Below, in pieces: positions 1 through 59,057 of a DNA stretch of 64,000 nucleotides. The stretch is from a virus. Made by a program: the position numbers and the translations under genes. The stretch spans positions 15,775 through 79,774 of IMG/VR virus record IMGVR_UViG_3300025815_000010, one strand, 5' to 3'. Each line of letters starts with the position of its first letter. The first letter of the stretch is position 1. Under the pieces are notes generated by a model, which saw nothing but the letters and a program-made list of their open reading frames with translations, made no database searches and had not been told where the DNA came from.

Positions 1-801
1 CAAGCGTCTTACAAGCTGCGTACTTGCAGGCATTGTAGAGGCAGCAGCACCGTCATCAATTGTCAAGATAGCGGTCCCGTCTCCTGCTTCAATAGCGGTT
101 AGAAGGTCTAGGTTGAGGTCCGACATCTTAGCAAAGTCAGTGTCAAAAACTGCAACAGTCCAGGTTGTCTGCGCAAGAAGATCTGGGTCGAAACGAAGAA
201 TCTTCTTTTCCGCCTCAGTAAGAGCGCTCACCAACTTAGAAGCAATTTGAATTGTCTCAATAACAAGACCACCGTTTGTGGCATCGTCAGCGTCAGTGCC
301 AGACGTGACAACAGAGCCTGTTGGCGAAGAATAGGCATTTGCCATGTTGTAGAAGCCGCCGCCCTCTTCAGTAATCTCTGTCACACCACCAGTAAGCTGG
401 CTACCAACAACACCACCACCATAAATTGAATCTGGCGTAGTGCCGTCAATACCAAGACGGTCGTTGGAGTACGTAAAGTCGAGGAAGAAGATGAGACCTG
501 CCGGGAGGCTCATCGGCTGAACGCTAACGAGGTCGTTGGCCAAAAGACCACCGAACACGCGACGAACAATTGGGAATGCAACAGCAGCGAAGCCCTCAAC
601 ATCGCCAGCTGCCATGGTGGAGACCTCACGAAGAAGCTCCTTAGCCTGGTTCTCAAGTAGACGTGACATGCTAGCACGATCACGATCATCGGAGATACCC
701 TCAAGGAGACCCGTGGCCTCCCACTTGGACTGAAGTGCCGCGCCTTCCTTTGCAAGATCGCGGTCAACAATGCCCTCTGTTAACTTCTGTAGTATAGACA
801 T
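1..801 (-). CDS. gp23: Major capsid protein (T4 gp23-like), 3' end beyond window
   Basis: Not in the ORF track. Read manually from ATG at 801: MSILQKLTEG...SKWEATGLLEG...LLENQAKELL...AFPIVRRVFGGLLANDLVSVQPMSLPAGLIFFLDF, a gp23 N-terminal signature. AGGAGG SD at 811-816. Confidence 0.95.
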   Translation of the reverse strand, partial: MSILQKLTEGIVDRDLAKEGAALQSKWEATGLLEGISDDRDRASMSRLLENQAKELLREVSTMAAGDVEGFAAVAFPIVRRVFGGLLANDLVSVQPMSLPAGLIFFLDFTYSNDRLGIDGTTPDSIYGGGVVGSQLTGGVTEITEEGGGFYNMANAYSSPTGSVVTSGTDADDATNGGLVIETIQIASKLVSALTEAEKKILRFDPDLLAQTTWTVAVFDTDFAKMSDLNLDLLTAIEAGDGTAILTIDDGAAASTMPASTQLVRRL

Positions 802-821
802 GATTAAAATCCTCCTAAAAT

Positions 822-2156
822 TTATCTATCTTTAATTCCTGCCAAGAGTTTCATTCTATCTGAGAACAGATTTGAATTGGACTCTTGAATCTTTCTTCTC
901 GGCAACATAGATGAAGGTCTTGATACAGCCTCACTCAGTGATTGCGGACCACTCTTACGAGAAGTTCCCACTGCGTTTTGAAGTGTTTCATACAACACCT
1001 TCGCCTCATTTACCGAACCTGCATTAGAGAGAGCTTCGACAATCGTTTCCTTTTGTCGCTCATTCAGGGAGGACTTTCTCAACACGCGGTTCGTATAAAG
1101 TAGTTTAGCGTTAGCAAGGTTAACCTCATCCAGCCTCTCCTTCAGAGCTTCTACAGCTTCCTTCAACTTAGCGTTGACGGACTGATGCTTCTGGAGGGCT
1201 TCCTGTAGGGTCTTGCCAACCTTTAAAAGTTCATCTCTTTCTTCTTTGTACTCGTCGGACTGTGCCATAGCGGCTGCAAGCTCTTCATTGTGCTGCATGA
1301 CAGACTCTGGTGTGCCTGCCCAACCGCTCTTTGTTGGCATTAAGTCAACAACAAGACTTTCAACAATTTCTTCGATATTCTCTTCGGAAAGCTCAAGACT
1401 TTCTTCGTTCAAGTTTTTCAATGCAGCCAATTCAGTGCTACCACGATCTTCATATTGGCTCTTTTGTTCATCACTTAGGTTTTTTGGAGGGACCATAAAG
1501 ATTTGATCTTTATGAACCACACTGAGGTCGATTTCTGGTCCACCCTTTGCGGTCTGATAACCAACAAAAAGCTCAGAGGAAATACCAAGTTTTTCTGCAA
1601 TGTCCTCTAGCGTATCGCCTTCCACAGCAGTGTACGTTTGCCCCTCTTCTCCTTCAAACATATCAATAGTTTCTTCGTCTAGCTCTATTTGGCCTTCATC
1701 CATGGACGGAACTACCTCAAGATCCTCCACGCCCATCTCCTCTTCAAGAGCATCAATGTCACGAGTAATGGACTCAAGCATGGCCTGTAGCTCCCCACGA
1801 GTAACGTCAATCTCTACTTCGTCTTCTAGATCAGAATCATCGTCTAGATCAGTGAGCGATGCATAACCAACATCTCCAAGCTCCTCTTCCTCGCCTGGTG
1901 CGAATGTGGCACCAGTCTCTGCATCAACAGGGTCAGGAGCCATACCTAGTCCACCCGGAGGAGCACCAATATCAGCAGGAGGCGCACCGATATCCATCGG
2001 AAGAGCAGCGGCTGCTAGGTCTTGCTCCAGAAGCTTCTCTACAGCTTCTTCAATCTTTGGAGCATATGCCTCAAGCAAAGATGCCTCTGCATTTTTAAGA
2101 ACAGCCTCTCTAAGAGCCTTCGCATCAACAATTGCATCGTCAAGTAAAGATGACAT
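822..2156 (-). CDS. Prohead core/scaffolding protein with inserted LysM-like domain
   Basis: Very acidic, coiled-coil protein immediately upstream of the capsid gene. C-terminus ...LDEVNLANAKLLYTN...RMKLLAGI. Likely start MSSLLDDAI at 2156 with GAGGA SD at 2164-2168. LysM-like segment YTAVEGDTLEDIAEKLGIS at about 1488-1637. Confidence 0.8.
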   Translation of the reverse strand: MSSLLDDAIVDAKALREAVLKNAEASLLEAYAPKIEEAVEKLLEQDLAAAALPMDIGAPPADIGAPPGGLGMAPDPVDAETGATFAPGEEEELGDVGYASLTDLDDDSDLEDEVEIDVTRGELQAMLESITRDIDALEEEMGVEDLEVVPSMDEGQIELDEETIDMFEGEEGQTYTAVEGDTLEDIAEKLGISSELFVGYQTAKGGPEIDLSVVHKDQIFMVPPKNLSDEQKSQYEDRGSTELAALKNLNEESLELSEENIEEIVESLVVDLMPTKSGWAGTPESVMQHNEELAAAMAQSDEYKEERDELLKVGKTLQEALQKHQSVNAKLKEAVEALKERLDEVNLANAKLLYTNRVLRKSSLNERQKETIVEALSNAGSVNEAKVLYETLQNAVGTSRKSGPQSLSEAVSRPSSMLPRRKIQESNSNLFSDRMKLLAGIKDR

Positions 2157-2186
2157 TAATAAATCCTCACAATAGTTATTCATGAA

Positions 2187-2194
2187 TAAATAGT
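2187..2194 (-). promoter_or_regulatory. Putative late promoter ACTATTTA
   Basis: Intergenic, 31 nt upstream of the scaffold start. The same motif recurs upstream of other structural genes. Confidence 0.6.
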
Positions 2195-2223
2195 ATTACA
2201 ATAAAGTAAAATCCAATTTTACC

Positions 2224-2535
2224 TTATCTGTTTTGTTTTGCTTGCTTCATTTTAAGCTTTCTGAGGACTGCTTCTCTGCGCATCTTGTCTCTTCTCTTCT
2301 TTACGGATGGCTTTTCGTAATACCTACCCTTCCTGAAGTCGTCTGCGATGCCGCTTTTCTTAACCTTTCTTAGAAATCTTTTAATAGTTTTCTCGATTGG
2401 TTCATTTCCTTTCGGTTGAATCGAAACGTGAGATGGTCTCTTTCCTTCCTTTGGGGGTTGTCTATGTGTATTATTGTATCTTCTATCTCTTCTATCGTCG
2501 TAATTTCGATAATGATTATCTCTTTTATATGACAT
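2224..2535 (-). CDS. rpsU: Phage-encoded 30S ribosomal protein bS21 with N-terminal extension
   Basis: Core NEPIEKTIKRFLRKVKKSGIADDFRKGRYYEKPSVKKRR matches the bS21 pattern (E..E.ALKRFKRK....G...E.RKR..YEKPS). GAGG SD present. Confidence 0.9.
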   Translation of the reverse strand: MSYKRDNHYRNYDDRRDRRYNNTHRQPPKEGKRPSHVSIQPKGNEPIEKTIKRFLRKVKKSGIADDFRKGRYYEKPSVKKRRDKMRREAVLRKLKMKQAKQNR

Positions 2536-2543
2536 TATTTCCT

Positions 2544-3002
2544 CTAACTTGATTTATCGACACCAACAGTATCCTCCCATGAACCAGAAGGGACTCTTGC
2601 TGCCTTAATTGTCGTAATACCAGCAATGACTGAAGCTGATGTTTCTTGAGAAGAATCGCTCATTAAGTAAAGCTGCGTAACTCTGAAATCTGCGGAGAAC
2701 GAACTACTAGGCTTAATCACAATGTAATTTGCATTTGGATTATTTAAACCACCAGAGGCAAAGGCGAGCCTGATGTCTGAACTAGTATGTGAATCACCCA
2801 ACTCATCATTCCTGACAACAACAAACTTGGTCACACCCGGAAAGGTGATCTTGGTGTAAGTATCGGAAGCTGACGCTGGGACATCCAGCGAAGCTGTTGC
2901 AAATGGGCGACAACTAACCTGATAACTTCCCACATGGTTAAACCCTGGTTCATGATATCCGAAAATTGGTTGCCCCGTTTTGGGGTCTGTGTTACTAGCC
3001 AT
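2544..3002 (-). CDS. Putative virion (head decoration-like) protein
   Basis: 152 aa, beta-rich and Ser/Thr-rich, in the head module. Preceded by GGAG SD and the ACTATTTA motif. Confidence 0.5.
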   Translation of the reverse strand: MASNTDPKTGQPIFGYHEPGFNHVGSYQVSCRPFATASLDVPASASDTYTKITFPGVTKFVVVRNDELGDSHTSSDIRLAFASGGLNNPNANYIVIKPSSSFSADFRVTQLYLMSDSSQETSASVIAGITTIKAARVPSGSWEDTVGVDKSS

Positions 3003-3042: not shown

Positions 3043-3780
3043 TTAAATATCACTAAAACCGTTTCCTGTGCTTGATCCGCCGCCAGAGGAGGCTATTACA
3101 TCTTTTACTGCAAATCCTCCTTTACCTCGCGCACCCTTAGAGCGTCTTCTGCGTCTTTTATTTCTTTTCTCTTTAGGAGTTTCCGACTCGCTGGCTGAAC
3201 CTGCGACATAAGAAACTTTTGGCCTATCAGCTACCGTACCGTAGGCAGCAGAACGAAATCTTGGACCACTCTTCGTTGCAGCAGCTGTATCGTCGTTACT
3301 ATAATCTTGTTCTGCTATAATGACGATTCTAAATTCATCCAAGTCTGCCATCGCTTGTCTGGCAGTTGCATTAAGAGTAATCTCATTTACAGACCCGTTG
3401 CTCCATGAAGAAGCCTGCTGAATTGCCGAGAAAGCAACAAAAGGGAATTCTCCCTTTCCGAAATCTCCATTAACATATTCGGCTGTGGTGCTGCCTGTCG
3501 TAGTAGAAGAGCCCTTAAGAACAATATAATTATTTTGTTTTGCTCCTGTGCTTGGCGCTGTCAATTTTAATGTCGCCGAAGCAGGAGCTACGGTAATAGA
3601 GCTAGTATCAAACACCATAAAAATTCTATGAATATCATAGGGTCCAACTGATGTCGCTATCTTTAGGCCGAGAGTAGTTGGTTCTGACGCAGTACCGGAA
3701 CTAGACTGCCTAGCAGTATTCCAAGTAGCTGCATTGTCAACTTTAATAACGGCACTATTTGATGCGGTAATATCAGGCAT
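3043..3780 (-). CDS. Putative virion protein, DNRLRE/CBM-like beta domain with Arg-rich C-terminal tail
   Basis: Likely start MPDITAS at 3780 (TAATG overlap with upstream stop). RIFMVFDTSSI...SATLKL...RPKVSY resembles DNRLRE-type domains. Tail KRNKRRRRRSK. Confidence 0.5.
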   Translation of the reverse strand: MPDITASNSAVIKVDNAATWNTARQSSSGTASEPTTLGLKIATSVGPYDIHRIFMVFDTSSITVAPASATLKLTAPSTGAKQNNYIVLKGSSTTTGSTTAEYVNGDFGKGEFPFVAFSAIQQASSWSNGSVNEITLNATARQAMADLDEFRIVIIAEQDYSNDDTAAATKSGPRFRSAAYGTVADRPKVSYVAGSASESETPKEKRNKRRRRRSKGARGKGGFAVKDVIASSGGGSSTGNGFSDI

Positions 3781-4046
3781 TAGATAGTAGTCTCCGTAAC
3801 AGACGTCAGGATTCCCCAACCTCCATTTTCTGTTTCCTCTTCAGTTGTAAAAAAATACTTTAATAAAAAAGATCTTAAAGTGGGTACCGTCTCTGTCGTC
3901 TTAGAATTTATGTCTGCCTGAAATTGACTTAAAAACTCAGATGCCGTTAGGGATCTTGCAATCCAGTCGTCTCCCTCTTGGTGTGGGTAGTCCCAAGCCT
4001 GAACAAAGCCATTTTGCCATGTAATGACAACAGAGAAAGTCCTCAT
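3780..4046 (-). CDS. Hypothetical protein
   Basis: Likely start MRTFSVV at 4046. TAATG overlaps at both ends. Confidence 0.6.
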   Translation of the reverse strand: MRTFSVVITWQNGFVQAWDYPHQEGDDWIARSLTASEFLSQFQADINSKTTETVPTLRSFLLKYFFTTEEETENGGWGILTSVTETTI

Positions 4047-4465
4047 TAGATAAGGTTCTTCCACTTGTTGCCACCTAAGGCCATAATGCCAGAGATATCA
4101 ATTCCAGAATCTCCAGGGTCTGTACCACCCAATGGGCTAGCCATCTGTGTTGCAGAGCCCTGTGCTGGTGCTGGAGTCGTTCCCTCAAAGAGATCAACAC
4201 CACCATATGCGTCTGCTCCAATGGCTTCCATTAGGCGCTTACGGTGCTCCGCCACCCTGTCAGAAACAGACGGTGCTGGAGTTTGTGCAACCTGCTTTTT
4301 TTTTGGTCTCTGCTCTGTCTTAGCTTCCAAGACTGGAGCAGGAGTACCTAAACCTTGCCTGACCTCTGCGATTACGTTAGATAAGATGCCTTCCTCAAGA
4401 ATACTCTCTCGTATGCATTCTTTGATTAAGGGTTTTAGTAATGCTTTTAGTTCAGACTTTTTCAT
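4046..4465 (-). CDS. Hypothetical prohead-associated protein
   Basis: Directly follows the protease gene. N-terminus MKKSELKALLKPLIKECIRE. Confidence 0.6.
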   Translation of the reverse strand: MKKSELKALLKPLIKECIRESILEEGILSNVIAEVRQGLGTPAPVLEAKTEQRPKKKQVAQTPAPSVSDRVAEHRKRLMEAIGADAYGGVDLFEGTTPAPAQGSATQMASPLGGTDPGDSGIDISGIMALGGNKWKNLI

Positions 4466-4466
4466 T

Positions 4467-5096
4467 TTATTTCCTTAAAATTTCGTTCATTAAGTTGTGT
4501 AAATTTTGGTTTTTGTTCTCACCCAAGCTAATACCAATTGACGGAGTTCTCTGTAGAGAGATGCCAGACATTGGCTTGATAAAAGCTCCCGGTGCTGATG
4601 GATCTGAAACAACATCAAAACAAATAAGATTAAAATCATCTTCTACAACAACGTGTTTACCACGCTGTTTTACAGACCCCAAGCCTCTAGAAGAAATACC
4701 GATGCCACAAGCAGATTCTGCGAGGGCTCTCAAGGTTCTTCCAGATGGTGTATTCAATACTTCAATTTTTCCCATAACGCTGTTGCCTTCCCACCAGACC
4801 TCTGTGACCAAGTGAGAACAATTCTTCAACTCAATCACAGAGGAGTCTGGATGGTCTAACTCGCCTAAGGCACGTCTAGTGTCTATAAGCTTCTGGTAGT
4901 TTTTCATTTCTCTTGCGAGAATCTGCTTCGGGTAAACTCGTCCATTTCCGTTAAGAGCATCAGCTTCCTGAATCTTACCGGTCATATAAAACGATACACC
5001 TTCTGACATTCTTTTTTTCTCGCTCTCCGTGAGGTAGTCAGGACAAACTCCACCATCACAAAGTGCAAAATATTCTGTTAACAATTGCTTAGACAT
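4467..5096 (-). CDS. gp21: Prohead core protein protease (T4 gp21-like)
   Basis: NGNGRVYP, ALGELDHP (catalytic His), GISSRGLGS (catalytic Ser), FDVVSDPS. Confidence 0.95.
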   Translation of the reverse strand: MSKQLLTEYFALCDGGVCPDYLTESEKKRMSEGVSFYMTGKIQEADALNGNGRVYPKQILAREMKNYQKLIDTRRALGELDHPDSSVIELKNCSHLVTEVWWEGNSVMGKIEVLNTPSGRTLRALAESACGIGISSRGLGSVKQRGKHVVVEDDFNLICFDVVSDPSAPGAFIKPMSGISLQRTPSIGISLGENKNQNLHNLMNEILRK

Positions 5097-5118: not shown

Positions 5119-5188
5119 GCGGGCGCTACCCGCGCGAGCTACGAACCGGAACAGCAGCGTGCGACAGGTCGTAGTAACCAACTACGAC
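5119..5188 (-). promoter_or_regulatory. Structured RNA leader (multiple hairpins) upstream of the protease
   Basis: Perfect 8-bp stem GTCGTAGT-TGGTT-ACTACGAC (5168-5188) and GC-rich stem GCGGG-TAGCG-CCCGC (5119-5133) followed by ATTCTT. Confidence 0.55.
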
Positions 5189-5213
5189 TTGATATGTTGC
5201 ACAGTAGTGGCAT
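5139..5213 (-). CDS. 24-codon upstream ORF MPLLCNISSRSWLLRPVARCCSGS, in frame with the protease gene
   Basis: ATG at 5213 preceded by AAGGGGGTGA (SD-like). TAG at 5141-5139. 5213-5096 = 117 nt, so in frame with the protease. Confidence 0.45.
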   Translation of the reverse strand: MPLLCNISSRSWLLRPVARCCSGS

Positions 5214-5426
5214 ATCTCACCCCCTTATCTTGGATTATCATGCTCAACATGTAAGAAGTCCCTGAACCTACACAACCACAAATTAAAAAATTAGCGAGTG
5301 TGTAGTCGAAAGTAAATAGTTCGGTCCATCGGTTAATCGCAAATAAAAACCACCCTGCATGAAAACTCATATATCTTTCCATATGGTGTAGTGAACTATC
5401 TTATGAACATGTCTTTCAGAAATCAT
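5182..5426 (-). pseudogene. Degenerate, 5'-truncated paralog of the upstream membrane protein
   Basis: WTELFTFDYT..NF.ICG....GTSYMLSM is shared with ORF 5429-5746. Upstream KIVHYTI in another frame aligns with KLFHCTL, consistent with a frameshift. Confidence 0.6.
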
Positions 5427-5428
5427 CT

Positions 5429-5746
5429 TTATTGACTTTTATGTTGGCTGTTTATTTTTATTCCTTCATCGTCCAGTACCATAGATAACATATATGATGT
5501 GCCAGCACTGACCCAGCCGCAAATAAAAAAGTTTACGACGGTATAGTCAAAAGTAAATAGCTCTGTCCATGGGCTTATCAAAAACATAAACTTACCAGCC
5601 CAATAACCAAAACAAAGCGTGCAATGAAACAACTTTCCGAAACCCCAAAGCCATTCTTTAGATGGCCTTATCTTGTTAAAAATACTAGCGTACACTACAA
5701 GATAAGTTAGTCCATGACATGCAAGGACAAACCAAAGTAGATTCAT
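5429..5746 (-). CDS. Small membrane protein, DUF1360-like (CxxC between TM helices)
   Basis: Hydrophobic helices; IFNKIR...LFHCTLCFGYWAG pattern. Confidence 0.6.
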   Translation of the reverse strand: MNLLWFVLACHGLTYLVVYASIFNKIRPSKEWLWGFGKLFHCTLCFGYWAGKFMFLISPWTELFTFDYTVVNFFICGWVSAGTSYMLSMVLDDEGIKINSQHKSQ

Positions 5747-6325: not shown

Positions 6326-7132
6326 TTAAACCTCCACAACCAAAGCCTGTATCTTCAAGATTGTCTTGATCATTACATCACTGATAGGCTGTGATCTAAA
6401 GTTTTCCAATATAGTCAAAATCTCTCTATTTTTATTACCAAGAGATTCGTCTAGGATAACTTCTCTCTTGGCTTGCAAGTTTTTGACCTCGGTCTTTAAG
6501 CGACTAATCTCATCATTTATAAAGAGCTTAAATTCTGTGGAGGTCTCTGGAGAAAGTGTTACATATCTTGAAAGTAAATCTTTCTGACTTTCGTTTAGAG
6601 AAGAGCCGTATTTCTCGTTAAACTTCTGCACAAAGATGTTGTATGTGATATTGTCAATTGGTTTCATCTTGGGGGAACTTTGGCGTGGTGAAGTCATAAG
6701 ATCAATCACCTTTTCTTCCAGTATGACCCTCTGTGCAATTGACACCTTTGGGGAAAACATCTGTGAGATTGTAGCTAGGGTCTTGTAGTTAGAAATAAAG
6801 TTATTGAAAATAGACTTAGACAGATCAGTGTTGACCTTTTTGATGACTTGTGACTGCTCATCAAAAATCTCTTGCTCTCCAAGCGTATGATAAACTCTTT
6901 TAACTTCAGATAAGATTCTTTCTGCTGTCTCTCTCTTCGCATCGGATACTTCACATAAAGTTTTGTATAAGTTTAGTTCACGATGGAGAACAGTCGTAGT
7001 ATTGAAGTGCTCTTTAAGGATAGAGGCAATTGCGTTCTTAGTAGTCGTATCGGACTGTATGGCAGCCTTTGTCATTTCCTTTACAAGACACTCATACAAA
7101 AACGCAGTGTTTCTCTTCTTATTATGCTTCAT
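6326..7132 (-). CDS. Hypothetical helical protein downstream of portal
   Basis: 268-aa ORF overlapping the portal stop; MKHNKKRNTAFLYE start. Confidence 0.7.
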   Translation of the reverse strand: MKHNKKRNTAFLYECLVKEMTKAAIQSDTTTKNAIASILKEHFNTTTVLHRELNLYKTLCEVSDAKRETAERILSEVKRVYHTLGEQEIFDEQSQVIKKVNTDLSKSIFNNFISNYKTLATISQMFSPKVSIAQRVILEEKVIDLMTSPRQSSPKMKPIDNITYNIFVQKFNEKYGSSLNESQKDLLSRYVTLSPETSTEFKLFINDEISRLKTEVKNLQAKREVILDESLGNKNREILTILENFRSQPISDVMIKTILKIQALVVEV

Positions 7133-9113
7133 CGGTCTTTGTCTCCATTGTTTTAAGATTTTCTAACAATCTCTCTGTTTCGTAACTTATAGAGAAAATT
7201 CTTTCTTCTTGAATGTTTTGTTCTCTCTCGTAATTAGTAGCTTCCGACGTTATACCTTTCTGGAGCGTGCTAATACTATCATGTCCGTAATATCCTGGGC
7301 CTATTGAACGCATGGTACCACCAGAAGCTGCCTCAGGCACTGCGGTCCTCGCTAGAGACTTAAGCCTTGGGCCTCTAGATTTCCTTCCATCCTGCTTTTT
7401 CTTACTTGGGTTAGTCCACCTAAAATCTTCGTCTCTTTTGCCTGGGGTTGCCAAAAGTGGGGTAGCTTCTGCCGCTTCTCCACCTCCGGTATCTGCAGCT
7501 GGCTCTGCGGCTGGCTCTGGCAAGCCACCAGCATCTTCTCCGCCTGGTTCTGCCAACGGCATATCACTTGCTCCAGGCAAGCCCTCGCCTCCCTCAAAGC
7601 CTCCTGCCATACCGGCATCCATGCCACCCGCAAGCGCACCAGCGGCTTGCTGACCAGCAGCTTCACCAACTGCGTTAAGCTCAGCCTCATACTTACGGTC
7701 GTGGTAAATCTCTCTCTTGTTACGAATAAATTCTTCCTCAGACATTCCAAAGAGATTTTCTGCGACCCAACGCTTAGAGAAGAAGCCATCAGTAGCGTTT
7801 GTTGCGACAGAGAACTTCTGATTCCAATGCTCAAGCTCTTGGATTTCTGCAATCTTAGATGGATTGTTAAGGGCAAGAGTAAAGCTGATTAGGTCTTCAC
7901 CACGGAACCCTAGTGTATGTAGGTGAACAATACCAATCTTTTCTAGCTCGGATAGGAGTGGACGCTGAAGTCTTTGCACTGTTCTCGCAAAACGGATATC
8001 TTTCTGTGCGAGAGTAGTTTTGTCTTCAGAGCCCCCCTCACCTTGGGTGAGGTAAGCAGCAGGGATCTTTAGAGCAGAGAACAACTTGTCTCTCAGATAT
8101 TTGACATCATCAATATCATGGTTTCTCTCTTGGCCCCCAACGCTTTCAATAGAAGCAAACTTTGTTCCACCACGAACAGGAATGTAATAGTCCTCTTCGA
8201 TGCTCATTGGATTGTAGCGAAGATCAACACGGCCAGTGTTCTGGTTGACTACTTGATTTCTCTTCATTGCAGTGATGACTCTCTGCATGTACTGCTCGAC
8301 ATCTTGAGGTGGAATGTTGCCGACATCAACATAGAAAGCCTTTCTGGCTGGTGCCCTAACAATACGGTATGCCATCATGGCATCTTCCATTAGTGTAAGC
8401 TGACGCCAAATACGGCGGGCTGGCTCTAGGACTGATGTTCCGTATGGGTGGTATTTATCATTCCCTAGGATACGGAAGTGAGCCATCTGCCAGTTTTCAA
8501 ATGTCATGCCTGCAGCGTTCCACTGGAACTGGATATAGTTTGGATTTGTCTTGTCTTCGCCCTCTAGCCTCTCAATCTCGTTTGGGGGGAGGCCGATTGC
8601 ATGACGAACACCATATGTTTCGTCAACATCCAAGTAAAGGAAAAAGTCTCCATACTTGCACATTGTACGAGCCCAACCAAAAAGATTAAACTTAACATTT
8701 AGAACGTCATTATAGAGACTGTCGAGAATGGCCCTAATCTCTTCGTTGGGACACTTGATCTGTAGCATTTCTGCTAGGGGAGAAGAGGTTGTCATTTCAT
8801 CTGCATAAATATCAAGAGCCGATGCAATCTCTGGCATGTATTCCATTTGGTCAGAGTCTACATATCTTTCCGTTCTATTCTGGTTCGCCATATAGTTTGA
8901 GTTCATAGACTCAAATGGATTATAATGTGACCTTTTGAATTCCTGCCCAGAGGCAGACTTAAACATATGTCCGTACTTATCAAGCTGTTGCTTGCGTATT
9001 CTGCGGCCTGTTTGTGTTCTACGGCTGACAATAGGGCCAGAGAATAACTTTGTTAGCCTCTTGTATATATCAGATGCAGGATTTCTAGGATTTCCACTAT
9101 TTTCGTCAGCCAT
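7122..9113 (-). CDS. gp20: Portal protein (T4 gp20-like) with long C-terminal extension
   Basis: PEIASALDIYADE, YGTSVLEPARRIWRQLTLMEDAMMAYRIVRAPARKAFYVDVGNIP, EEDYYIPVR, LFSALKIP, DIRFARTVQRLQ. Confidence 0.95.
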   Translation of the reverse strand: MADENSGNPRNPASDIYKRLTKLFSGPIVSRRTQTGRRIRKQQLDKYGHMFKSASGQEFKRSHYNPFESMNSNYMANQNRTERYVDSDQMEYMPEIASALDIYADEMTTSSPLAEMLQIKCPNEEIRAILDSLYNDVLNVKFNLFGWARTMCKYGDFFLYLDVDETYGVRHAIGLPPNEIERLEGEDKTNPNYIQFQWNAAGMTFENWQMAHFRILGNDKYHPYGTSVLEPARRIWRQLTLMEDAMMAYRIVRAPARKAFYVDVGNIPPQDVEQYMQRVITAMKRNQVVNQNTGRVDLRYNPMSIEEDYYIPVRGGTKFASIESVGGQERNHDIDDVKYLRDKLFSALKIPAAYLTQGEGGSEDKTTLAQKDIRFARTVQRLQRPLLSELEKIGIVHLHTLGFRGEDLISFTLALNNPSKIAEIQELEHWNQKFSVATNATDGFFSKRWVAENLFGMSEEEFIRNKREIYHDRKYEAELNAVGEAAGQQAAGALAGGMDAGMAGGFEGGEGLPGASDMPLAEPGGEDAGGLPEPAAEPAADTGGGEAAEATPLLATPGKRDEDFRWTNPSKKKQDGRKSRGPRLKSLARTAVPEAASGGTMRSIGPGYYGHDSISTLQKGITSEATNYEREQNIQEERIFSISYETERLLENLKTMETKTDEA

Positions 9114-12652: not shown

Positions 12653-15600
12653 TTAACATTCAACAAAAGCATGACCCTCTTTTTGTTCGATAGATATCTG
12701 CATATCGACACAATCCTTTAGAGCCTCAAGGTGAGAGATCAAAAGAACGGTCTTGAAATGACTCTTAATCATGTCTAACATTCTTGTAAAGCCTTCCATG
12801 TTTTCTTCATCGAGTGCTGTGCCTGGCTCATCAAGGATAAACACATCACCTTTGGGTAGGTTTGAAACTGAAAGCATAGCAAGTCTAATTGCCATGGCAG
12901 CAATTGTTTTCTCAGCACCTGACCCCATCTCAAGAGGTCGTGACTCCTGGCCTGGGTGTTGGATATGGATATTCAATCTCTTGCCATCATCCTCAAAGTA
13001 AACGTCAAAGTCAACGATATTCATCAAGAACTTAGAGATTTCTTCATTGATTACGGGAAGCTTACTTTTAATAATATCATAGGCTATGCCATTGCTGTGC
13101 ATGCACTTGAGGTAAAGGTCGTATGCAGAATACTCCTCTTGTAGTCTGACAAGTTCTGCCTGCTGATCTCTTAGGTTCTCTATCTTCTGCTCTAAGGAGC
13201 CAAGCTTTTTGTACAAGAATTTTGCTTGATTGTCGAAGTTCTTCTTCTTTGTTTGAGCATTGGCCAGAGCAACCTCAAGGGCTCTCTTATTAGCCATGAG
13301 AGTATTTAACCCATCGATAGCTTCCTTATTAATATTATATTGTTGCTGCTTCTCCTCTAAACCTTCTATCTCAGTAATCAAATTAGAAATGATCGCTTTA
13401 TTCTTGTCGATTGTGAGCACAGCCCTATCCAAAGCTGTTTCGTATTGCGAACGCTTTGACAGCATCTTCTGATGCTTATCAAGTTGCTCCTGTGCCTCTG
13501 TGGGGTCAAGGGCATCTCGCTTCTCTTGTAATTGAGCCTTATGAGAGTCTAGCTCAGAAAGCTGGTGCTCGTTTGTAGGAATATTAGCTTTTGCGACATA
13601 AGCATCTTTAATAAACTTACAAGTGGGGAAAGAAGAACCACAAGGGATACCCTCTAGCGTTGTTGCTTGTCTTTCATTTTGCCTCTTCTCTTTTGCTATC
13701 TCGCTGATCTTTTGATTTAGTTCTTGCATAAAATCATCAATCTTAGAGCACTTATCTACTCTATTCTCATATGTCTTCGCATCAAAGTCATCGATATAGT
13801 CGGTGAATGTTTTGATAATCTCTGTATATCTAATCACCTTTTGCTCTAATTCAGTTTGCTGGTCTTGAACGGACACTAATTGGTTTCTTTTATCTTGCAG
13901 CCGCCTTGTCAAGTCAGCGATGTCGATAAGCTCAGTGGGCGTTGAATCAATCTTCACCTGAAGCAGAGCTATATCTTTGCGATACCCTTCGATCTTTTCT
14001 GCTATTGCTTTAAGCTCACCTTGCTTAGTCTTATGATCTTCGATGCATTCTTCTAGGTCGTACAGAGCTTGGTCGATATCTGCGGCATACTCTTTTCCCT
14101 CAAGTCTCTTGAGTGCTCCACGCAGATCAGATGCTTCGACTTTTGCAAACTTGTACTTTCGATCAAACAGTTCTAGGTCTAGGAACTTAGCAAAGATTTC
14201 TTTACGCTTCGTTGAGCCTTCACGAATAAAAGAAAGAGAATCCAGCTGAGAGGACATTGAGGTTAGAAGAAAATCGTCAACTGTTCCAAAAACCTTTCTA
14301 ATCTCCTTATCCGTATCGTTTCTGGTAAGGCCATTGCGCTCTGACTTAAAGCCATCAATCGACACAGACGTAAAGTTAACATCTGTCTTAGCCTCTGTTA
14401 TTTGCTGGCCCTTTGACTTCTTTGTGTATTTGTCAGACTGTCGAGTAATATTCCACACTGTTCCGTCTTCTGTGAGGATTTCTAGCACACCACGAGCATA
14501 CTCTTTATCAAAGTTAATTACATTTAGGTTTTTTCTTTCGTTCTTTGATGTGGTGTTGAACATCGTAAACAGTAAGCTATCGATAATGCTAGACTTACCA
14601 GAGAAGTTCTTTCCAAAGATGCCTACGATCCCATTCAACTTTGCAAAGTCAATGTGATTATCTTCGCCATAGTTGAACAAGTTGTCGAAAGTTAGGCTAC
14701 GAATAGCCCAATTGACATTTCTTAAGACTTCCTCTTTCTCTTCGGCCATAAGGTTATACTTGTCATTCAGTTGGAGAATCTTGTTCATGACAGAATCACT
14801 AAGATTGTAATCCGACAAAAACTCCTTAATAAGTCTTCTTTGTACCACAATATCTCGTAAATCGTCGTGACGAATATGATCTACGGTGCCAACGTCAAGG
14901 CTATTCTGGCTAATGTTTCTATTGAGAAACGTGATGCTCTCTGGCTGGTATTGGTGCTTTGCCACGTCAACAGCTTTCTTCATCTCTTCTAGAGAAATGC
15001 TCTCATTTGAGACCAACCTAATGCGAGCCCCTTTATCAACTTGATACGTCGGAACCTTGCCGCTCTGTAGTTCTAGAGTAACGAAGGGCTTTGGATTCTT
15101 AAACGTAACGCGCTTGACAGTGAAGCTATCCCTATCTTGGATGTCCCAAATGAGCATACCCTTATCTTCAGACTCTCCAAAGCCTTGCTGAACGGTTGAA
15201 CCTGCATAGCGGATCTTACCCTTCTTATCCATTGCCTGAGCTTTGTGGATGTCTCCCAAGAAGCCATAATCAAACTCTTCAAAGATTGTCACATCATGCT
15301 CACCCTTTTCCATAGTCCAGCCACTGTCCGTTTGGCAGTTAGAGATAGAGCCATGATACAAAGCAATATTAACATTATCGTAGTTTGATGGATCTTGCCA
15401 GTTGTCCTCATCGAATACAGACAGGACAGACAGCGAAAAACCATCCCTTAGATAGACCTCTTGTGAATCCTTAAGCAAGTGTAGCTTGGGGTGCTCAAGT
15501 GCTTCCACAATGGGCGTTAAGGCGTCGAGACGGCCTGTATTCTTGAGGTTGCCATCGTGATTACCAAGGATCACATATGTCGGAGCAATGTCAGCTAGTC

Positions 15601-15796
15601 TGCTTAGAAAAGCGGAACACATATCGACAAACTCTGGTGATATTTGTGTCTTTGTGTGAGCTATATCACCACAATGAATAATGTAATCTACATCTTCTTC
15701 AAGGATCGCAGCGTAAAGCTGTTCAAATACATCATTATATTCTTTGTGATACTTAAGATTCCTAATATGAGTATCAGCTATGTGCGCAAACTTCAA
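12653..15796 (-). CDS. Mre11(SbcD/gp47)-Rad50(SbcC/gp46) fusion nuclease-ATPase
   Basis: Metallophosphoesterase motifs DTH, GD, GNHD, GDIH. Then Walker A GKNFSGKSS, long coiled coil with CGSSFPTC hook, GSGAEK signature, ILDEP, ISH. TTG start. Confidence 0.9.
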   Translation of the reverse strand: MKFAHIADTHIRNLKYHKEYNDVFEQLYAAILEEDVDYIIHCGDIAHTKTQISPEFVDMCSAFLSRLADIAPTYVILGNHDGNLKNTGRLDALTPIVEALEHPKLHLLKDSQEVYLRDGFSLSVLSVFDEDNWQDPSNYDNVNIALYHGSISNCQTDSGWTMEKGEHDVTIFEEFDYGFLGDIHKAQAMDKKGKIRYAGSTVQQGFGESEDKGMLIWDIQDRDSFTVKRVTFKNPKPFVTLELQSGKVPTYQVDKGARIRLVSNESISLEEMKKAVDVAKHQYQPESITFLNRNISQNSLDVGTVDHIRHDDLRDIVVQRRLIKEFLSDYNLSDSVMNKILQLNDKYNLMAEEKEEVLRNVNWAIRSLTFDNLFNYGEDNHIDFAKLNGIVGIFGKNFSGKSSIIDSLLFTMFNTTSKNERKNLNVINFDKEYARGVLEILTEDGTVWNITRQSDKYTKKSKGQQITEAKTDVNFTSVSIDGFKSERNGLTRNDTDKEIRKVFGTVDDFLLTSMSSQLDSLSFIREGSTKRKEIFAKFLDLELFDRKYKFAKVEASDLRGALKRLEGKEYAADIDQALYDLEECIEDHKTKQGELKAIAEKIEGYRKDIALLQVKIDSTPTELIDIADLTRRLQDKRNQLVSVQDQQTELEQKVIRYTEIIKTFTDYIDDFDAKTYENRVDKCSKIDDFMQELNQKISEIAKEKRQNERQATTLEGIPCGSSFPTCKFIKDAYVAKANIPTNEHQLSELDSHKAQLQEKRDALDPTEAQEQLDKHQKMLSKRSQYETALDRAVLTIDKNKAIISNLITEIEGLEEKQQQYNINKEAIDGLNTLMANKRALEVALANAQTKKKNFDNQAKFLYKKLGSLEQKIENLRDQQAELVRLQEEYSAYDLYLKCMHSNGIAYDIIKSKLPVINEEISKFLMNIVDFDVYFEDDGKRLNIHIQHPGQESRPLEMGSGAEKTIAAMAIRLAMLSVSNLPKGDVFILDEPGTALDEENMEGFTRMLDMIKSHFKTVLLISHLEALKDCVDMQISIEQKEGHAFVEC

Positions 15797-16812: not shown

Positions 16813-19494
16813 TTAACCCTTGATTAATTTTTGCCAGCGATTGTAGATAGATTCATCCAACTCTCCACGAGCTTGTGCTGCCGCGAACTCTCTTTCAAAT
16901 TCATCAGGCTCTGTGTTTCTGTCGTAAAATCCACTTTCAATCTTTTCCATTTCTATTTTAATCTCTTCAGCAGTCATTTTTATTTCTTCGTTCTGCTGGA
17001 TACTAACGTCTTCACCTTGTGCGATTACATCTTTTAACAATGCTAACATTGTAATCGTTTTCCCAATCAAACTAATCGCTCTTTTTCTATTGCCTAGAGG
17101 GCCTTTGGCAAACGTCATCTTACCGAAATCAGCGATATCTCCCGGCAAGAACTCATCCACTTTACTAAAATCGTAAGTAACAGTCTTAGTCGGCCCTTTC
17201 TTGGCCTTGAGACGCTTCTCGATGTTTCTTAAATCCTGAACTGCTTGTTCAATCGCAGGTGCTGCAGACGTCATAGCAACTACACTGCCACCTGTAGCGG
17301 CAGCAGGTGATGCCGCCTGGCCTATTGAGAGGCTACTTGACTGCGTGGCGCTCGGGAGAGTACCAGTAAATTCTTTCTTTGAGCGCTTAATTAATTCAAT
17401 TGCTTCTGATGGCCCGAATTGACGTTTAAGCTCGGCGGCAGTTGCTTGATACCACTTTTGGAAAGCACTATAGGAACTGTCTTTTGGCAATACAGCTTCT
17501 TTCAAATTATCTCCAGTGGTCGCCGCAATCCACACTCTAGCCATTTCAGCATGTTTTGGACTCACTGAAGCAAACTTACGCCAGTCAGCAGGAATACCGG
17601 AAAGATCAACTGCTGAACTTGACTGTTGTGATGGCTTGGATACTTGAGTTGGCATCTTCTGCCTTAGTTGGGTATACATCGGACTGACAGCATTCTTGAA
17701 GCCACCTTCAGCCGGTGGTTCAACCACTAAAGGCTCTGCTAGTAAGCCGAGAATCTTATCATTTCGTTGTAATTCTTCATAAGATTTTGGTGGAGCAGCA
17801 AATACATCGCTCATAGTTTTAAAGATCCTACTTGCTACTTGTATCCTATCCTGATCCGTGCTTCCCCAGCTGTTCCATGAACCATTGCTTTGCAAATATT
17901 GTAAAATACTGTCTGCACTAGATAGGTTTGCTGATGCCTGCTCAGCCAGAACAGTTTTAACTTCTTGGATAACCATTTCCTCTAATTGCTTGCTTGTGAG
18001 TTTCATCTTCTTTGATCTCCTTTGTTGTCTTTCAATTCTTTTAGCTAACCTGACCTGTAAATTATTTTTTGCTCTCTCGATCCTGGCTTTAAGCTTTTCA
18101 CTGTTTTTTGCTTTTGGCAATAAACTTTCTAATCTTTCAATCTTCTTTACTAAAGCTGGAAATGGCAACGAATTGTCCGAGCCACGCTCAGTTTGCTGTC
18201 CAAATTGTTTTGGGTTTATTGGCAATAACTCACCAGATTCTGCATTATTTAATTCCTGTTCGACTGAACGTTCAATTAACTCTTCCATAGTTTCTTTGTC
18301 AACTCGACCAGTCGCTTCTAGGCGATTTCTTTTTTGAAAATCAATTACTGCTTTTTCTGTTCTAGGGCCAAAATACCCATCTATTCCAATTCTGATACCT
18401 GCTGTTTGTAGCAGCCCTTGTAGAACCCTAACTATTCCTTCTCCTTGCGCACCAGAAGGCAAGGATCTATCAAATTTTTTCAAGACTCCTTTATTATTTA
18501 GGATATCTTCTTGTGTGAGGTTAGTCACTTGATATGTTGGTCTAACATTTGTACTGACCGCTGTCTGAGCCTGTTTTCGTGCTTCCTCTGGAGTGTCCCC
18601 ACCTTTCTCAACCTCGGCAGCTACTTGTTTCTCTGTTTCGGCAACTCCACTTAATACAATTTTATTAGCGTTAACAGCAGAAGATACCACTCTATCAACA
18701 AGCTTTAAAAGTGCTGTTTCTGCCGCATCCTCACTCTTAATACGAAAACGATCTTCTGTGCCACGATCTCTAGCATACTGCCATTCAGAAGCGATCATCT
18801 TCTTAACCAAACTGGTCAATGAATCCTTCATAAATGCTTGTTTTATTGGAGTCGGGCTAATTGGACTGTTTGCTACTGTTATCTCATTAGCTTGCTCAAT
18901 AAACGCCTGCCTTCGACCAATCGCTTCCGTGCTTGGGTTATTGGGAGTATAATCTATGGTTGCTGTCGGAGCGTAATCAGCGCCGGACATGACCCTATCT
19001 AGACCCAAAGAGGGAACCCAATATTCCTTAAACCTGCTATAAAAATCTGTTGCGTTAAAGATGTAGCTACAGCATTCTGCTAAGAAGTTTGCATACTCTT
19101 GTGAGTATGCAACCATTGAGTCACTAAGTGGCTCAGAAGCATCATCTGGTATTAACTTAAGTATTTTTTCTGTGTCGGGGTTTGAGCTACTTTGCTGCAC
19201 CCAGGCTTGGAAAATATTAGCTAAATATGCAGAGGTTGGGGCACCGACGAGAGCAGTTTGTCTTAGGCTAAACTGCCCTCCTGACGTAAACATTGCTTTG
19301 CCAAGACTTTTAAGTACCGGCCCTAAAACTTTAGTGCCAAGGAAACTAAGTGCTGAGCCTGCCATCGGTGCTGCTGCTCTAAGACCTAAAGCTCCGAAAC
19401 CCACTTCATCCAACTGCCGCTGCTCTTTCATAGCAGACTTAGCTTCTTCAATAATAATTTGATTTATTTCAAATTCGGTCAACTTATGTGCCAT
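16813..19494 (-). CDS. Large protein with peptidoglycan-binding (PG_binding_1) domain, probable internal virion protein
   Basis: VRVLQGLL...IDGYFGPRTEKAVIDFQKRNRLEATGRVDKET at about 18277-18435. Likely start MAHKLT at 19494 with GGAG SD. Confidence 0.75.
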   Translation of the reverse strand: MAHKLTEFEINQIIIEEAKSAMKEQRQLDEVGFGALGLRAAAPMAGSALSFLGTKVLGPVLKSLGKAMFTSGGQFSLRQTALVGAPTSAYLANIFQAWVQQSSSNPDTEKILKLIPDDASEPLSDSMVAYSQEYANFLAECCSYIFNATDFYSRFKEYWVPSLGLDRVMSGADYAPTATIDYTPNNPSTEAIGRRQAFIEQANEITVANSPISPTPIKQAFMKDSLTSLVKKMIASEWQYARDRGTEDRFRIKSEDAAETALLKLVDRVVSSAVNANKIVLSGVAETEKQVAAEVEKGGDTPEEARKQAQTAVSTNVRPTYQVTNLTQEDILNNKGVLKKFDRSLPSGAQGEGIVRVLQGLLQTAGIRIGIDGYFGPRTEKAVIDFQKRNRLEATGRVDKETMEELIERSVEQELNNAESGELLPINPKQFGQQTERGSDNSLPFPALVKKIERLESLLPKAKNSEKLKARIERAKNNLQVRLAKRIERQQRRSKKMKLTSKQLEEMVIQEVKTVLAEQASANLSSADSILQYLQSNGSWNSWGSTDQDRIQVASRIFKTMSDVFAAPPKSYEELQRNDKILGLLAEPLVVEPPAEGGFKNAVSPMYTQLRQKMPTQVSKPSQQSSSAVDLSGIPADWRKFASVSPKHAEMARVWIAATTGDNLKEAVLPKDSSYSAFQKWYQATAAELKRQFGPSEAIELIKRSKKEFTGTLPSATQSSSLSIGQAASPAAATGGSVVAMTSAAPAIEQAVQDLRNIEKRLKAKKGPTKTVTYDFSKVDEFLPGDIADFGKMTFAKGPLGNRKRAISLIGKTITMLALLKDVIAQGEDVSIQQNEEIKMTAEEIKIEMEKIESGFYDRNTEPDEFEREFAAAQARGELDESIYNRWQKLIKG

Positions 19495-20023
19495 TCTTTG
19501 CGTCTCCAATTAGCTTGATAGCTGCTCTTGCTATGATTAAACTGTCTGCTCTATCATAAGATACTGGCTTGGGGTTCCCTCTGCTAGTATATTCTATAGT
19601 GAAAGACTCTTCATTCTTCAATAAATAGTCCAAAACAACATCTTTTGCCTTTTGGCCTCTGGAAACTTTAATGCCACTTAACTTTCTCGCTTGGGCTGGA
19701 GATATATGAACTGGTCTATATCCAAACGTGTCATGACACAGCCAAGAAACAATACCATTAAAGGCTTGAAGTTTCGCCATTGTCTTGGCTGTTGAGCCAC
19801 CTGATTTAAAGAAAACAAAAGGTTCCTCAATATAGACATGTTTTATATTGTAGTAAAGATTTATTTCCTTAAGTTTTTCTTTAATAAACGATCCTTTATT
19901 ATAGAGATCTGAAAATAAACGTTTGTTTCTTAAGTCCCATGCTTCACAAATTATTATTTTTGCTTCCTCGTCTAGAATCGTATATCCTGTAACTGAGGTG
20001 CTTATATCTAATCCCAATATCAT
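19484..20023 (-). CDS. RuvC-like Holliday junction resolvase
   Basis: MILGLDISTSVTG, VYIEEP, DRADSLIIA. Confidence 0.85.
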   Translation of the reverse strand: MILGLDISTSVTGYTILDEEAKIIICEAWDLRNKRLFSDLYNKGSFIKEKLKEINLYYNIKHVYIEEPFVFFKSGGSTAKTMAKLQAFNGIVSWLCHDTFGYRPVHISPAQARKLSGIKVSRGQKAKDVVLDYLLKNEESFTIEYTSRGNPKPVSYDRADSLIIARAAIKLIGDAKNGT

Positions 20024-30374: not shown

Positions 30375-31510
30375 TAATATACGGTTCCAGGCTTATCGCT
30401 GCAAGGATCATCCAAGTCTGGGCAAGGCTCGGATACTGCATCTGTACTGTAAATATCTACCAGTGCAATATTTTTCACATCTTCGCATTCAAAATCAACA
30501 TTGATGTATCTGCCATCTTTCTTATTCTCTTCGATTGATGAGCAGATAAGCTGGCTATTAATCTGCTTATCAACATATATGTTGAAATAATATTCAACAT
30601 TATCAGGTGTTATTGGTTCATTTGACGTTATGATTTCATCATCATCTAATAGAATTCCATCTTGAATATTAGATGGTCTTCTCCTAAACTTTAAAGGCTT
30701 TAGTCTTTCTACGAGAGAAGCCTCTAGTCCAGCAACACTTTCCGTAGTTACCTCAAACACTTCAATTTCAAAATTATCTTTGGTAAATTCTGAATTTAAT
30801 TCTTTAACTTGACAAAGTAATATTTCAGGATCAATATCCAGTATCTCTCCATTCTCAAACTGGATCGCCAGTTCAGTATCCGATATGAAATCTCTGTTTG
30901 TTATAGTATCTATTTTGTAGGTCAGGTCTACATTGATTTGTGGAATATCAAGCGTTGGCCTTGTAGAGCTAGAAAACGTATCTGTAGAGGAAGCTATCTC
31001 TCCACGCAGAAGTGTGATTGACCAAGCTGGAGCTTTCGTTGTCAGCTTATCAGTTGTGCCAAGCGCATATTGAGGACCATAATAATCTCTGTCAAATGCA
31101 CTAGTATCTGATAAAGACTTTAGGTTTTCTTTTGCTTGTTCTATCTCTGCTGGTAGCTCTAAGCTAAGCTTGGGTGACAGCACTGGTCCAGTGTTAGCCC
31201 CCCCTGGGGACGGAGAAGTTCCTGCAACTCTCAACCTAGTCGTCAATAAGCCTGTTTTATGAAAAACATTTCTATCAGAAAAAACTGTTTGTGTTGCAAG
31301 TTGCGGAGTATCTTCTTGAATTCTGGGTTCTATAGAATTCTGCTCTCTTTCGGGAGACTCGTTTGGTCTACCATACTGACTCTCATAAAGAATATTGTCG
31401 TCAAAAAACGCATAGTATTCTGGCTTTAGTCGCCCTACCGACAATAAGTATTCACCATAAGGAGTTAGGACCGTATCTAAAACTTCTTCTTTTTTATCTA
31501 GAAATTTCAT
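30374..31510 (-). CDS. Baseplate/tail structural protein
   Basis: N-terminus DTVLTPYGEYLLSVG...YYAFFDDNILY resembles the N-terminus of 22620-23510. Confidence 0.6.
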   Translation of the reverse strand: MKFLDKKEEVLDTVLTPYGEYLLSVGRLKPEYYAFFDDNILYESQYGRPNESPEREQNSIEPRIQEDTPQLATQTVFSDRNVFHKTGLLTTRLRVAGTSPSPGGANTGPVLSPKLSLELPAEIEQAKENLKSLSDTSAFDRDYYGPQYALGTTDKLTTKAPAWSITLLRGEIASSTDTFSSSTRPTLDIPQINVDLTYKIDTITNRDFISDTELAIQFENGEILDIDPEILLCQVKELNSEFTKDNFEIEVFEVTTESVAGLEASLVERLKPLKFRRRPSNIQDGILLDDDEIITSNEPITPDNVEYYFNIYVDKQINSQLICSSIEENKKDGRYINVDFECEDVKNIALVDIYSTDAVSEPCPDLDDPCSDKPGTVY

Positions 31511-54110: not shown

Positions 54111-54297
54111 CGCCAAAGTCCTGATTTAATTTGACTGTTGGTGGGTTCATCACCATCAAGCCAGTCTCACTAAGTCTAAACTTGAATGCTTTCAGCACAG
54201 GCACAATGTCTGACTGTTCCAGAAGAGACTTCTGTAGGGCCATCATTAGGGCTCCCAATGCTTGGTCGCTAAGGTGCATATTGTTATCTTCACTCAT
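54097..54297 (-). CDS. Hypothetical protein
   Basis: 66 aa, TAATG-coupled, AGGAG SD. Confidence 0.6.
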   Translation of the reverse strand: MSEDNNMHLSDQALGALMMALQKSLLEQSDIVPVLKAFKFRLSETGLMVMNPPTVKLNQDFGDAEV

Positions 54298-59049: not shown

Positions 59050-59057
59050 AAACTCTC

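Follow-up and report, generated by a model that had tools for sequence, protein, structure and literature searches.

What is a wall-binding type of fold doing inside a protein that a phage probably uses to build its head? The question is raised by a 64,000-nucleotide stretch of viral DNA, positions 15,775 to 79,774 of IMG/VR record IMGVR_UViG_3300025815_000010, referred to here as the window; it is part of a 79.8 kb record rated 44% complete, and its DNA occurs mainly in freshwater metagenome runs. The window encodes an acidic protein of 444 residues, by position and composition the apparent analogue of the scaffold protein gp22 of T4 in what we take to be an uncultured freshwater T4-like myophage, and in the middle of this protein lies a LysM domain. 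The new point of our analysis is that the LysM module and the helix trailing it are an optional, swappable cassette in a hypervariable mosaic linker.

822..2156, minus strand: coding sequence of the acidic protein, 444 aa, presumed prohead scaffold or core protein by position (ORF 822-2183, homolog N-termini, GAGGA)
1488..1637, minus strand: LysM fold, T174-P223 (strand 174-176, helix 183-190, helix 194-204, strand 219-221)

The open reading frame (ORF) covers 822-2183. Its second ATG was taken as the start codon because the homologs all begin with MSSLL and a GAGGA motif lies 8 nt upstream; the coding sequence is then 822-2156, and residue numbers count from this ATG. The protein has a pI of 4.2, with 98 acidic and 41 basic residues. 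Its 120 best relatives form the set of close relatives used throughout, in which the window protein is P0001. The family is large: 1833 of the 8000 candidates scored reach E≤1e-3, and at the same threshold 4136 representatives of 50% clusters belong to it, of which 709 reach ≤1e-30.

Identification of the LysM fold

The peptide on which the original prediction of a LysM domain was based lies exactly where it had been placed and spans T174-P223. Taken alone, it is borderline: against PF01476 the window copy reaches 16.8 bits (E 0.007) where the cut-off is 20.9, and matches profile positions 1-21 of 43 only, and a phmmer search of the PDB with the window sequence gave the LysM effector Ecp6 at E 0.024. 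Relatives and structure settle the assignment. A LysM match in the same slot (E≤0.01) is found in 15 of the 120 best relatives, window protein included; of the 14 others, 13 score above the Pfam threshold (23.2-49 bits), 12 with matches that cover almost the full profile, and P0002, the closest LysM-bearing relative of the window protein, stays under it. The domain call was thus missed by Pfam for the window copy itself and upheld for nearly all of its LysM-bearing relatives. At E≤0.01 a profile of the 15 modules (A3) matched 25 distinct PDB sequences, which are mostly LysM proteins or known carriers, with Ecp6 as the best (5.4e-18) and LytE (1.5e-14) and a T. thermophilus NlpC/P60 protein (7e-13) among the others.

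Structure prediction, also by way of the module alignment, points to the same fold. The AlphaFold2 model of residues 168-256 (mean pLDDT 86.9, pTM 0.79) is predicted to run strand-helix-helix-strand and then into a long helix, and the full-length model has the same elements. In a Foldseek search of the PDB the top rows were nearly all LysM, with TM scores of 0.75-0.77 by target and rmsd 2.0-2.3 Å over 50-53 columns; the E value was just 0.014, because the domain is so short. VIA-align superposed 49 of 49 residues on 5k2l (Z 7.3, rmsd 1.7 Å); 52 chains reached Z≥5, and those listed are mostly of LysM type. Module profile, model and both structural searches therefore support the domain as predicted, and its fold is, on this modelling, that of LysM.

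Five positions, G180, T182, L183, I186 and A187, never vary among the 15 modules, and conservation is at least 90% at D181, Q218 and P223. The LysM signature (G180-D-T-L183, I186-A187, Q218, P223) falls in these columns and is complete in the window copy, to which the other modules are only 15-39% identical. The loop between helix 2 and strand 2 is unusually long in the window copy, by 5-6 residues. A Pfam search of the phage's own 79.8-kb record found this LysM only, and a database search with the window's LysM region returned only itself and P0002 (2 of 106 candidates), so that the window's subtype of LysM is rare.

Outside phages, the module type designated a below has its nearest relatives in bacterial wall hydrolases, whose LysM repeats (LytF/NlpC-P60, YkuD, SLT and M23 contexts) are 38-53% identical to it, apart from two short matches of 74-84% over about a quarter of the module. 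With the wall-hydrolase LysM (PF01476; LytF/LytE, NlpC/P60, MltD) the window module shares the beta-alpha-alpha-beta fold and the G-D-T-L ... I-A signature. It differs from them in being a single, acidic copy made in the cytoplasm without an N-terminal hydrophobic segment, and in its longer last loop, extra trailing helix and sub-cut-off Pfam score.

LysM-like folds also serve as structural joints in contractile-tail machines, and the module could be a protein-protein element of the core, unrelated to glycan, that binds shell, portal or core proteins or tunes assembly. VIA-align gave Z 4.7-5.8 to the phiCD508 tail tube initiator (9g8s/9gb2), the baseplates 7aeb_M, 7b5h_AK and 9gtp_M, and pyocin R2 6u5b; 9g8s was matched by the sequence profile too (1.4e-4), and a trypanosome mitoribosome assembly factor reached Z 7.0. 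We nevertheless regard such a role as quite unlikely, since the closest sequence relatives are wall-hydrolase LysM repeats and not baseplate proteins, and since a module essential for assembly would not be missing from 105 of the 120 close relatives or from P0005, a protein with three other differences from that of the window. The baseplate and tube-initiator domains (phiCD508 gp61 9g8s, 7aeb_M, 6u5b) have the same fold and occur in phage-like particles, but they are fixed tail parts, whereas the window module is an optional insert in a head protein.

An exchangeable cassette in a hypervariable linker

1386..1732, minus strand: hypervariable linker, residues ~143-257, exchanged as a block (X10 and X12 contigs join 1385 to 1733)
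1407..1653, minus strand: cassette proper, residues ~169-250, replaced by 22 letters in a LysM-less variant (X16 contig joins 1406 to 1654)
1401..1472, minus strand: helix 229-252, trailing the LysM in the same cassette (AlphaFold2, pLDDT 91-95)

Whether the module is a fixed part of the protein can be read from its nearest neighbours. P0005 has three substitutions relative to the window protein and a single indel, in which 7 residues stand in place of residues ~169-250, a net change of -75. The indel takes out the LysM together with the trailing helix, which makes the two a cassette unit; helix 229-252 is common to the cassette types a and c described below, and not to b.

The same polymorphism is present in nature. 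Contigs from four metagenome runs, designated by X numbers, were compared with window positions 600-2600. In DNA run X10 a 606-nt contig (1356-1961) carries the exact LysM form, with 0 differences and a depth of 8.8, and in a second contig, at a depth of 10.2, positions 1385 and 1733 are linked by 236 letters of other sequence; run X12 holds the same pair of forms. From its length alone, the linker-replaced form of X10 and X12, net -37 codons, would correspond to the P0006-P0010 type. In run X16 the LysM-less form was found, in which 22 letters join 1406 to 1654; read in frame on the minus strand they encode the seven residues of P0005, and the net loss of 75 codons is the P0001/P0005 indel. 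X16 is an RNA-library run, with contigs over most of 600-2437, and as such a library may contain DNA these contigs are no proof of transcription. Since both forms were found in X10 and again in X12, LysM-bearing and alternative forms circulate together.

Over longer distances the module has come and gone repeatedly. In a tree built from backbone columns only, with 114 of the 120 rows (6 fragmentary rows were dropped), all LysM rows fall in a single 60-row clade, in which 11 changes are needed to account for presence and absence; well-supported branches make at least 7 of these unavoidable. Sister pairs with and without the module are P0001/P0005, P0004/P0010, P0027/P0024, P0057/P0063 and P0073/P0075. 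Farther out, LysM was found in 0 of 145 further 50%-cluster representatives searched with a local hidden Markov model built from the 15 modules themselves, in 0 of 9 related IMG/VR loci, and in none of the cultured-phage loci fetched. The suggestion that the domain might be a variable insertion is thus borne out by its occurrence in 15 of 120 relatives, by P0005, by the tree and by the alternative contigs.

The linker that receives the cassette is itself a mosaic of recurring short cassettes. Both flanks are present in 117 of the 120 relatives, and its length there is 19-164 aa (median 60). Three LysM subtypes occupy the slot: type a, with V-G-Y-Q and the trailing helix; type b, canonical; and type c, the window's diverged form of a. 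Other linker pieces are D-A-D-G-D repeats, an M-H-C-P-G motif and Cys...Cys hairpins, and Pfam matches EF-hand_7 and Dockerin_1 weakly in 4 of 120 linkers each (E≤0.01).

Some of these pieces merit separate mention. Calcium-loop-like cassettes in the slot include D-A-N-K-D-G-K-I-T-G-K-D-F-E and F-P-D-L-T-G-D-G-K-V-T, and linkers of this kind occur in P0011, P0014-P0018, P0020, P0021, P0026, P0029, P0079 and P0080. Segments of ~20-30 residues with Cys...Cys stand beside the LysM or replace it in P0002, P0029, P0046, P0049 and P0075, and the motif M-H-C-P-G / H-C-x-x-[KR]-D recurs in many linkers. The Cys segments and the H-C motif may be further minidomains or metal sites.

Change is concentrated in the cassette even where it is not exchanged outright. 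Between P0001 and P0002, 15 of 90 positions differ in residues 162-251 and 1 of 354 outside them (Fisher p 2e-10), and the 15 changes spare every LysM signature residue. The contrast means one of three things: cassette exchange, diversifying selection or relaxed constraint.

Position and family of the carrier protein

1..801, minus strand: major capsid protein, gp23-type, N-terminal part, running off the window (PF07068 Gp23 1.1e-11; phrog_138 9e-17)
2224-2535, minus strand: ribosomal protein S21 gene, inside the head module between the protease and presumed scaffold genes (Pfam 4.5e-15)
4467..5096, minus strand: prohead serine protease, gp21-type (PF03420 Peptidase_S77 2.2e-33; phrog_207 1.2e-50)
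7122..9113, minus strand: portal protein, T4-type (PF07230 1.5e-73)
1302..1367, minus strand: most conserved block of the family, I264-V-E266 ... KSGWAGTPES (120-sequence alignment)
972..1307, minus strand: predicted 77-residue helix (284-360), then helix-loop-helix (366-395) with SLNERQK-x-KIV (AlphaFold2, pLDDT 84-95)

What the cassette means depends on what carries it. The position of the 444-aa protein, its composition and the lack of another candidate in the head module make it, with good probability, the head scaffold. Three lineages, those of the window, Microcystis phage Mel-JY01 and Flavobacterium phage immuto, have a gene of this family directly upstream of the one for the capsid protein; in Mel-JY01 and immuto the homolog comes after the protease and before the capsid gene, and gp22 holds the same place in six T4-like phages. 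Three regions of the protein are conserved: the N-terminal helix (2-49), a helix at 120-140 and the C-terminal half (256-444). The N-terminus is predicted to be a 48-residue amphipathic helix without a hydrophobic segment (AlphaFold2 model; no signal-peptide predictor was run). In the most conserved block E266, L268, V270 and D271 are invariant in 120 sequences, and P274, K276 and G278-E284 are at least 90% conserved.

"Scaffold" is nonetheless a positional call, because homology to T4 gp22 is not detectable. PF25623 (T4_CASP) and phrog_237 gave no match at E≤1 for P0005, for the N- and C-terminal parts or for the Mel-JY01 and immuto homologs, and the whole window protein has no PHROGs match at E≤0.001 and no T4_CASP match in Pfam at ≤0.01. 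The same gp22 models do detect T4 and cyanophage (S-RIM2) gp22, at 5.5e-90 and 7.6e-81, and overall at 1e-81 to 1e-137. PHROGs searches with the N- and C-terminal parts at E≤1 returned noise only (E≥0.02). Comparison of family profiles with gp22 by hhalign, using single sequences and a gp22 alignment of just 6 sequences, gave probabilities of 0.1-3.9% over a 12-column motif only, or over 52 columns with T4 alone; the motif aligned is SLNERQK.KIV in the family and LTESQKEKV in gp22. Two weak hints point toward gp22. A Foldseek search of BFVD with the full-length model placed a 'Prohead core protein' at rank 3 (E 8e-4), where only names were used since TM scores are low throughout (0.1-0.2), as expected for a flexible helical protein, and in the ESM Atlas the nearest named cluster is T4_CASP (score 0.82). 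Of the original description as a capsid scaffolding protein, then, gene position and acidic composition speak in favour, whereas the T4 gp22 models (PF25623, phrog_237) are unmatched and hhalign does not exceed 3.9%.

The family's lack of homology to gp22 models, and the several unassigned ORFs that lie between the portal and capsid genes, leave some room for a different head-internal or ejection protein encoded beside the capsid gene, in which the LysM would be part of a conventional virion-associated wall-binding protein. The chance of this appears slim. None of the ten head-module proteins scanned matches T4_CASP or another scaffold family either (ORFs 5182-5382, 5429-5746 and 3780-4064 lay outside the scan); in position, acidity, long helices and [LI]-x-E density the protein is like a scaffold; and 4136 cluster representatives retain its conserved parts, whereas the LysM is a rarity.

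As a scaffold, the window protein would resemble T4 gp22 in gene place, between the gp21-type protease and the gp23-type capsid gene, in being acidic, helical and rich in L/I-x-E motifs, and in a short common motif, L-x-E-x-QKEK[IV], ~80 residues from the C-terminus. It differs from gp22 in its undetectable homology, in its length (444 aa against 269 aa), in the hypervariable mosaic linker able to hold a folded domain, and in the extra genes, ribosomal protein S21 included, between protease and scaffold.

Several side observations concern this neighbourhood and the rest of the window. Mel-JY01 has rpsU at the same relative place as the window's S21 gene. The immuto homolog (L014 5092-6333) is named 'DNA polymerase phi-like protein' in the public record, a name that most likely stems from the acidic low-complexity region. 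The remaining window holds the large terminase, baseplate wedge proteins, giant ORFs and replication genes. At 16813-19509 (minus strand) an 898-aa protein has PG_binding_1 (PF01471, 2.9e-15, residues 360-411) and weak endolysin-family PHROG matches; its PG_binding_1 is a second peptidoglycan-binding module of the phage, unrelated to the LysM. Two giant ORFs of 2806 and 2412 aa (31507-39927 and 43706-50944, minus strand) adjoin the baseplate wedge genes, the former with a Laminin_G_3 / concanavalin-like domain (1.4e-10), and are probably fibre or baseplate-periphery proteins. The sequence of a 1047-aa ORF (12653-15796, minus strand), which matches an SbcD-like family over residues 1-347 and an SbcC-like family over 210-1041, suggests a fused gp47/gp46-type nuclease. 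Clustered at 54297-62405 (minus strand) are three glycosyltransferases, a methyltransferase, a radical-SAM protein and a UDP-glucose dehydrogenase, which could modify DNA or surface glycans; a tie between this cluster and the LysM is pure speculation.

Protease motifs and the possible fate of the module

1674..1682, minus strand: L159-D-E161, candidate cleavage site on the upstream side of the cassette (79 of 120 relatives have [LI]-x-E here)
1404..1412, minus strand: L249-N-E251, candidate site where the cassette helix ends, restricted to this cassette type (kept in 2 of 120, 115 gapped)
1383..1391, minus strand: L256-S-E258, candidate protease site just past the linker (kept in 97 of 120)

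If the carrier is a scaffold, a head protease would be expected to process it, and T4 gp21 cleaves after L/I-x-E (PMC9026906). The LDE, LNE and LSE triplets that were said to flank the LysM are all present, as L159-D-E161, L249-N-E251 and L256-S-E258, and the gp21-type protease context assumed for them is provided by an S77 protease gene (PF03420 2.2e-33) 2.3 kb from the LysM-bearing gene. The protein contains 20 [LI]-x-E motifs, compared with 10.2 ± 2.7 in shuffled sequences, and 0 of 2000 shuffles reached 20. The I264-V-E266 motif is kept in 119 of 120 relatives, and the capsid protein has an L57-R-E59 motif 10 residues ahead of the start of its Pfam Gp23 match.

The explanation we favour, tentatively and as a plausible rather than a probable one, is that the LysM cassette is scaffold-borne cargo freed by the prohead protease. 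The fold, the exchange of the cassette and its polymorphism in nature, the bracketing motifs and the protease gene are shown by the data, and the scaffold role, cleavage, retention, ejection and glycan binding are inferred. The conserved N- and C-terminal helical parts would do the scaffolding, and the linker between them would act as a cargo bay for varied small cassettes. As part of the scaffold chain, the module would enter every prohead at scaffold copy number, for which T4 gives a guide of ~580 gp22 copies per prohead (PMC9026906, PMC9958956, PMC5694885). Cuts by the gp21-type protease at the conserved [LI]-x-E motifs on either side would then release a folded fragment of ~10 kDa, roughly residues 162-251, and the helical parts of the scaffold would be cut smaller. 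The LysM fragment would stay in the head and exit with the DNA as T4 internal proteins do, and in the envelope of the next host it could meet peptidoglycan. Ejection would be its only way to the usual ligand, because contact with the wall is possible only after leaving the head.

Close precedents are the T4 internal proteins, which gp21 trims once and which remain in the head until ejection carries them out with the DNA (PMC9026906, PMC9958956, PMC5694885). IPI, IPII, IPIII and Alt, gp21-trimmed and ejected core cargo, resemble the cassette in being dispensable and polymorphic (PMC9958956, PMC9026906), and IPI is described there as acting in the phage-host arms race (PMC9958956, PMC9026906). 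They differ from it in being separate genes with an N-terminal tag, whereas the window module, by this analogy, would need two cuts to leave the scaffold in which it is embedded; it is internal (residues 169-250 of 444) and so has no N-terminal targeting peptide of the T4 kind. A blastp search with four segments found no convincing copies of a scaffold-helix leader on other window ORFs (best foreign E 0.014, to an overlapping plus-strand ORF). A second parallel is T7 gp16, a head-internal ejection protein with a transglycosylase domain that acts on the wall. Like the module as we envisage it, gp16 is a capsid-internal protein that meets peptidoglycan only after ejection; unlike it, gp16 is large, serves as a dedicated core protein and carries an enzyme domain, whereas the module is a ~10-kDa fold and no enzyme.

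The scheme can be widened, to a form that we consider rather unlikely. Here the linker would be a cargo bay under diversifying exchange, and its interchangeable extracytoplasmic-type modules, comprising the three LysM subtypes, EF-hand/dockerin-like calcium loops, Cys-hairpin minidomains and acidic D-x-D-G-D repeats, each with prohead-protease sites on both sides, would be loaded in hundreds, freed, kept and injected with or before the DNA. The LysM version might act at the host wall on entry, for example by anchoring the ejection conduit or masking wall fragments. If true, this would be a scaffold-encoded, polymorphic system of ejected effectors, a delivery route not described for T4-like phages.

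Several observations weigh against release and delivery of a working LysM. The window copy, besides its sub-threshold Pfam score, is the most diverged and degenerate of the 15 modules, with D before Q218 in place of the usual G of G-Q, and the module is acidic (pI 4.1). LysM is dispensable, as 105 of the 120 close relatives do without it, and the gp22 models and hhalign leave the scaffold assignment without homology. An excess of [LI]-x-E is expected also in any amphipathic helix rich in Leu and Glu, and I186-A-E188 is itself an [LI]-x-E within LysM helix 1, where a cut might destroy the module. Finally, in T4 most of the fragments that gp21 makes of gp22 leave the head (PMC9026906, PMC9958956, PMC5694885).

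Much of this would be explained if the cassette were a passenger, an insert that reached a tolerant linker by recombination, drifts there, and is degraded or expelled with the scaffold peptides without any role in the virion. A linker that ranges over 19-164 aa, and that in most relatives holds no domain at all, is what such an insert would need; a degenerate copy under the Pfam cut-off, an internal I-A-E that could let the protease cut the fold, and the exit of most T4 scaffold fragments all fit as well. So does the P0001/P0002 contrast, as relaxed constraint, if silent divergence of the backbone proves of similar size. A drifting passenger would not be expected, however, to have kept a fold that is still predicted with high confidence (pLDDT 86.9), or signature residues that stay invariant across modules 15-39% identical to the window copy and that no P0001/P0002 change touches. 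Three LysM subtypes in one slot, with 13 of the 15 modules passing Pfam, argue for repeated retention or acquisition rather than decay. We judge the passenger explanation possible and somewhat unlikely, and continue to favour scaffold-borne cargo.

The original prediction also offered a second role for the domain, as a tether between proheads under assembly and the cell envelope. Proheads are built in the cytoplasm; the peptidoglycan is on the far side of the cytoplasmic membrane. The wall is therefore separated by that membrane from a scaffold that sits inside the shell of a cytoplasmic particle, the protein has no N-terminal hydrophobic segment, and P0005 shows that the module can be dispensed with. 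T4 proheads do start on the inner membrane, by way of the portal (PMC9958956), but topology makes a tether to the wall very improbable indeed.

Full-text literature searches, with matches judged by their titles, turned up no account of a scaffold or internal head protein that contains a LysM; the titles matched concern endolysins, a prophage genome and a tape-measure motif. Scaffolds are usually viewed as disposable assembly chaperones, and here a folded domain of wall-binding type sits inside one that is probably such a scaffold. That its cassettes are exchangeable, and differ between phages that are near-identical elsewhere, suggests that scaffolds can also carry variable cargo. The family, with its 4136 cluster representatives, has two cultured members, Mel-JY01 and immuto, that are suited to tests of scaffold function and processing. 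If the modules are retained and ejected, they would represent a new loading route for phage effectors and a natural template for packaging foreign proteins in capsids.

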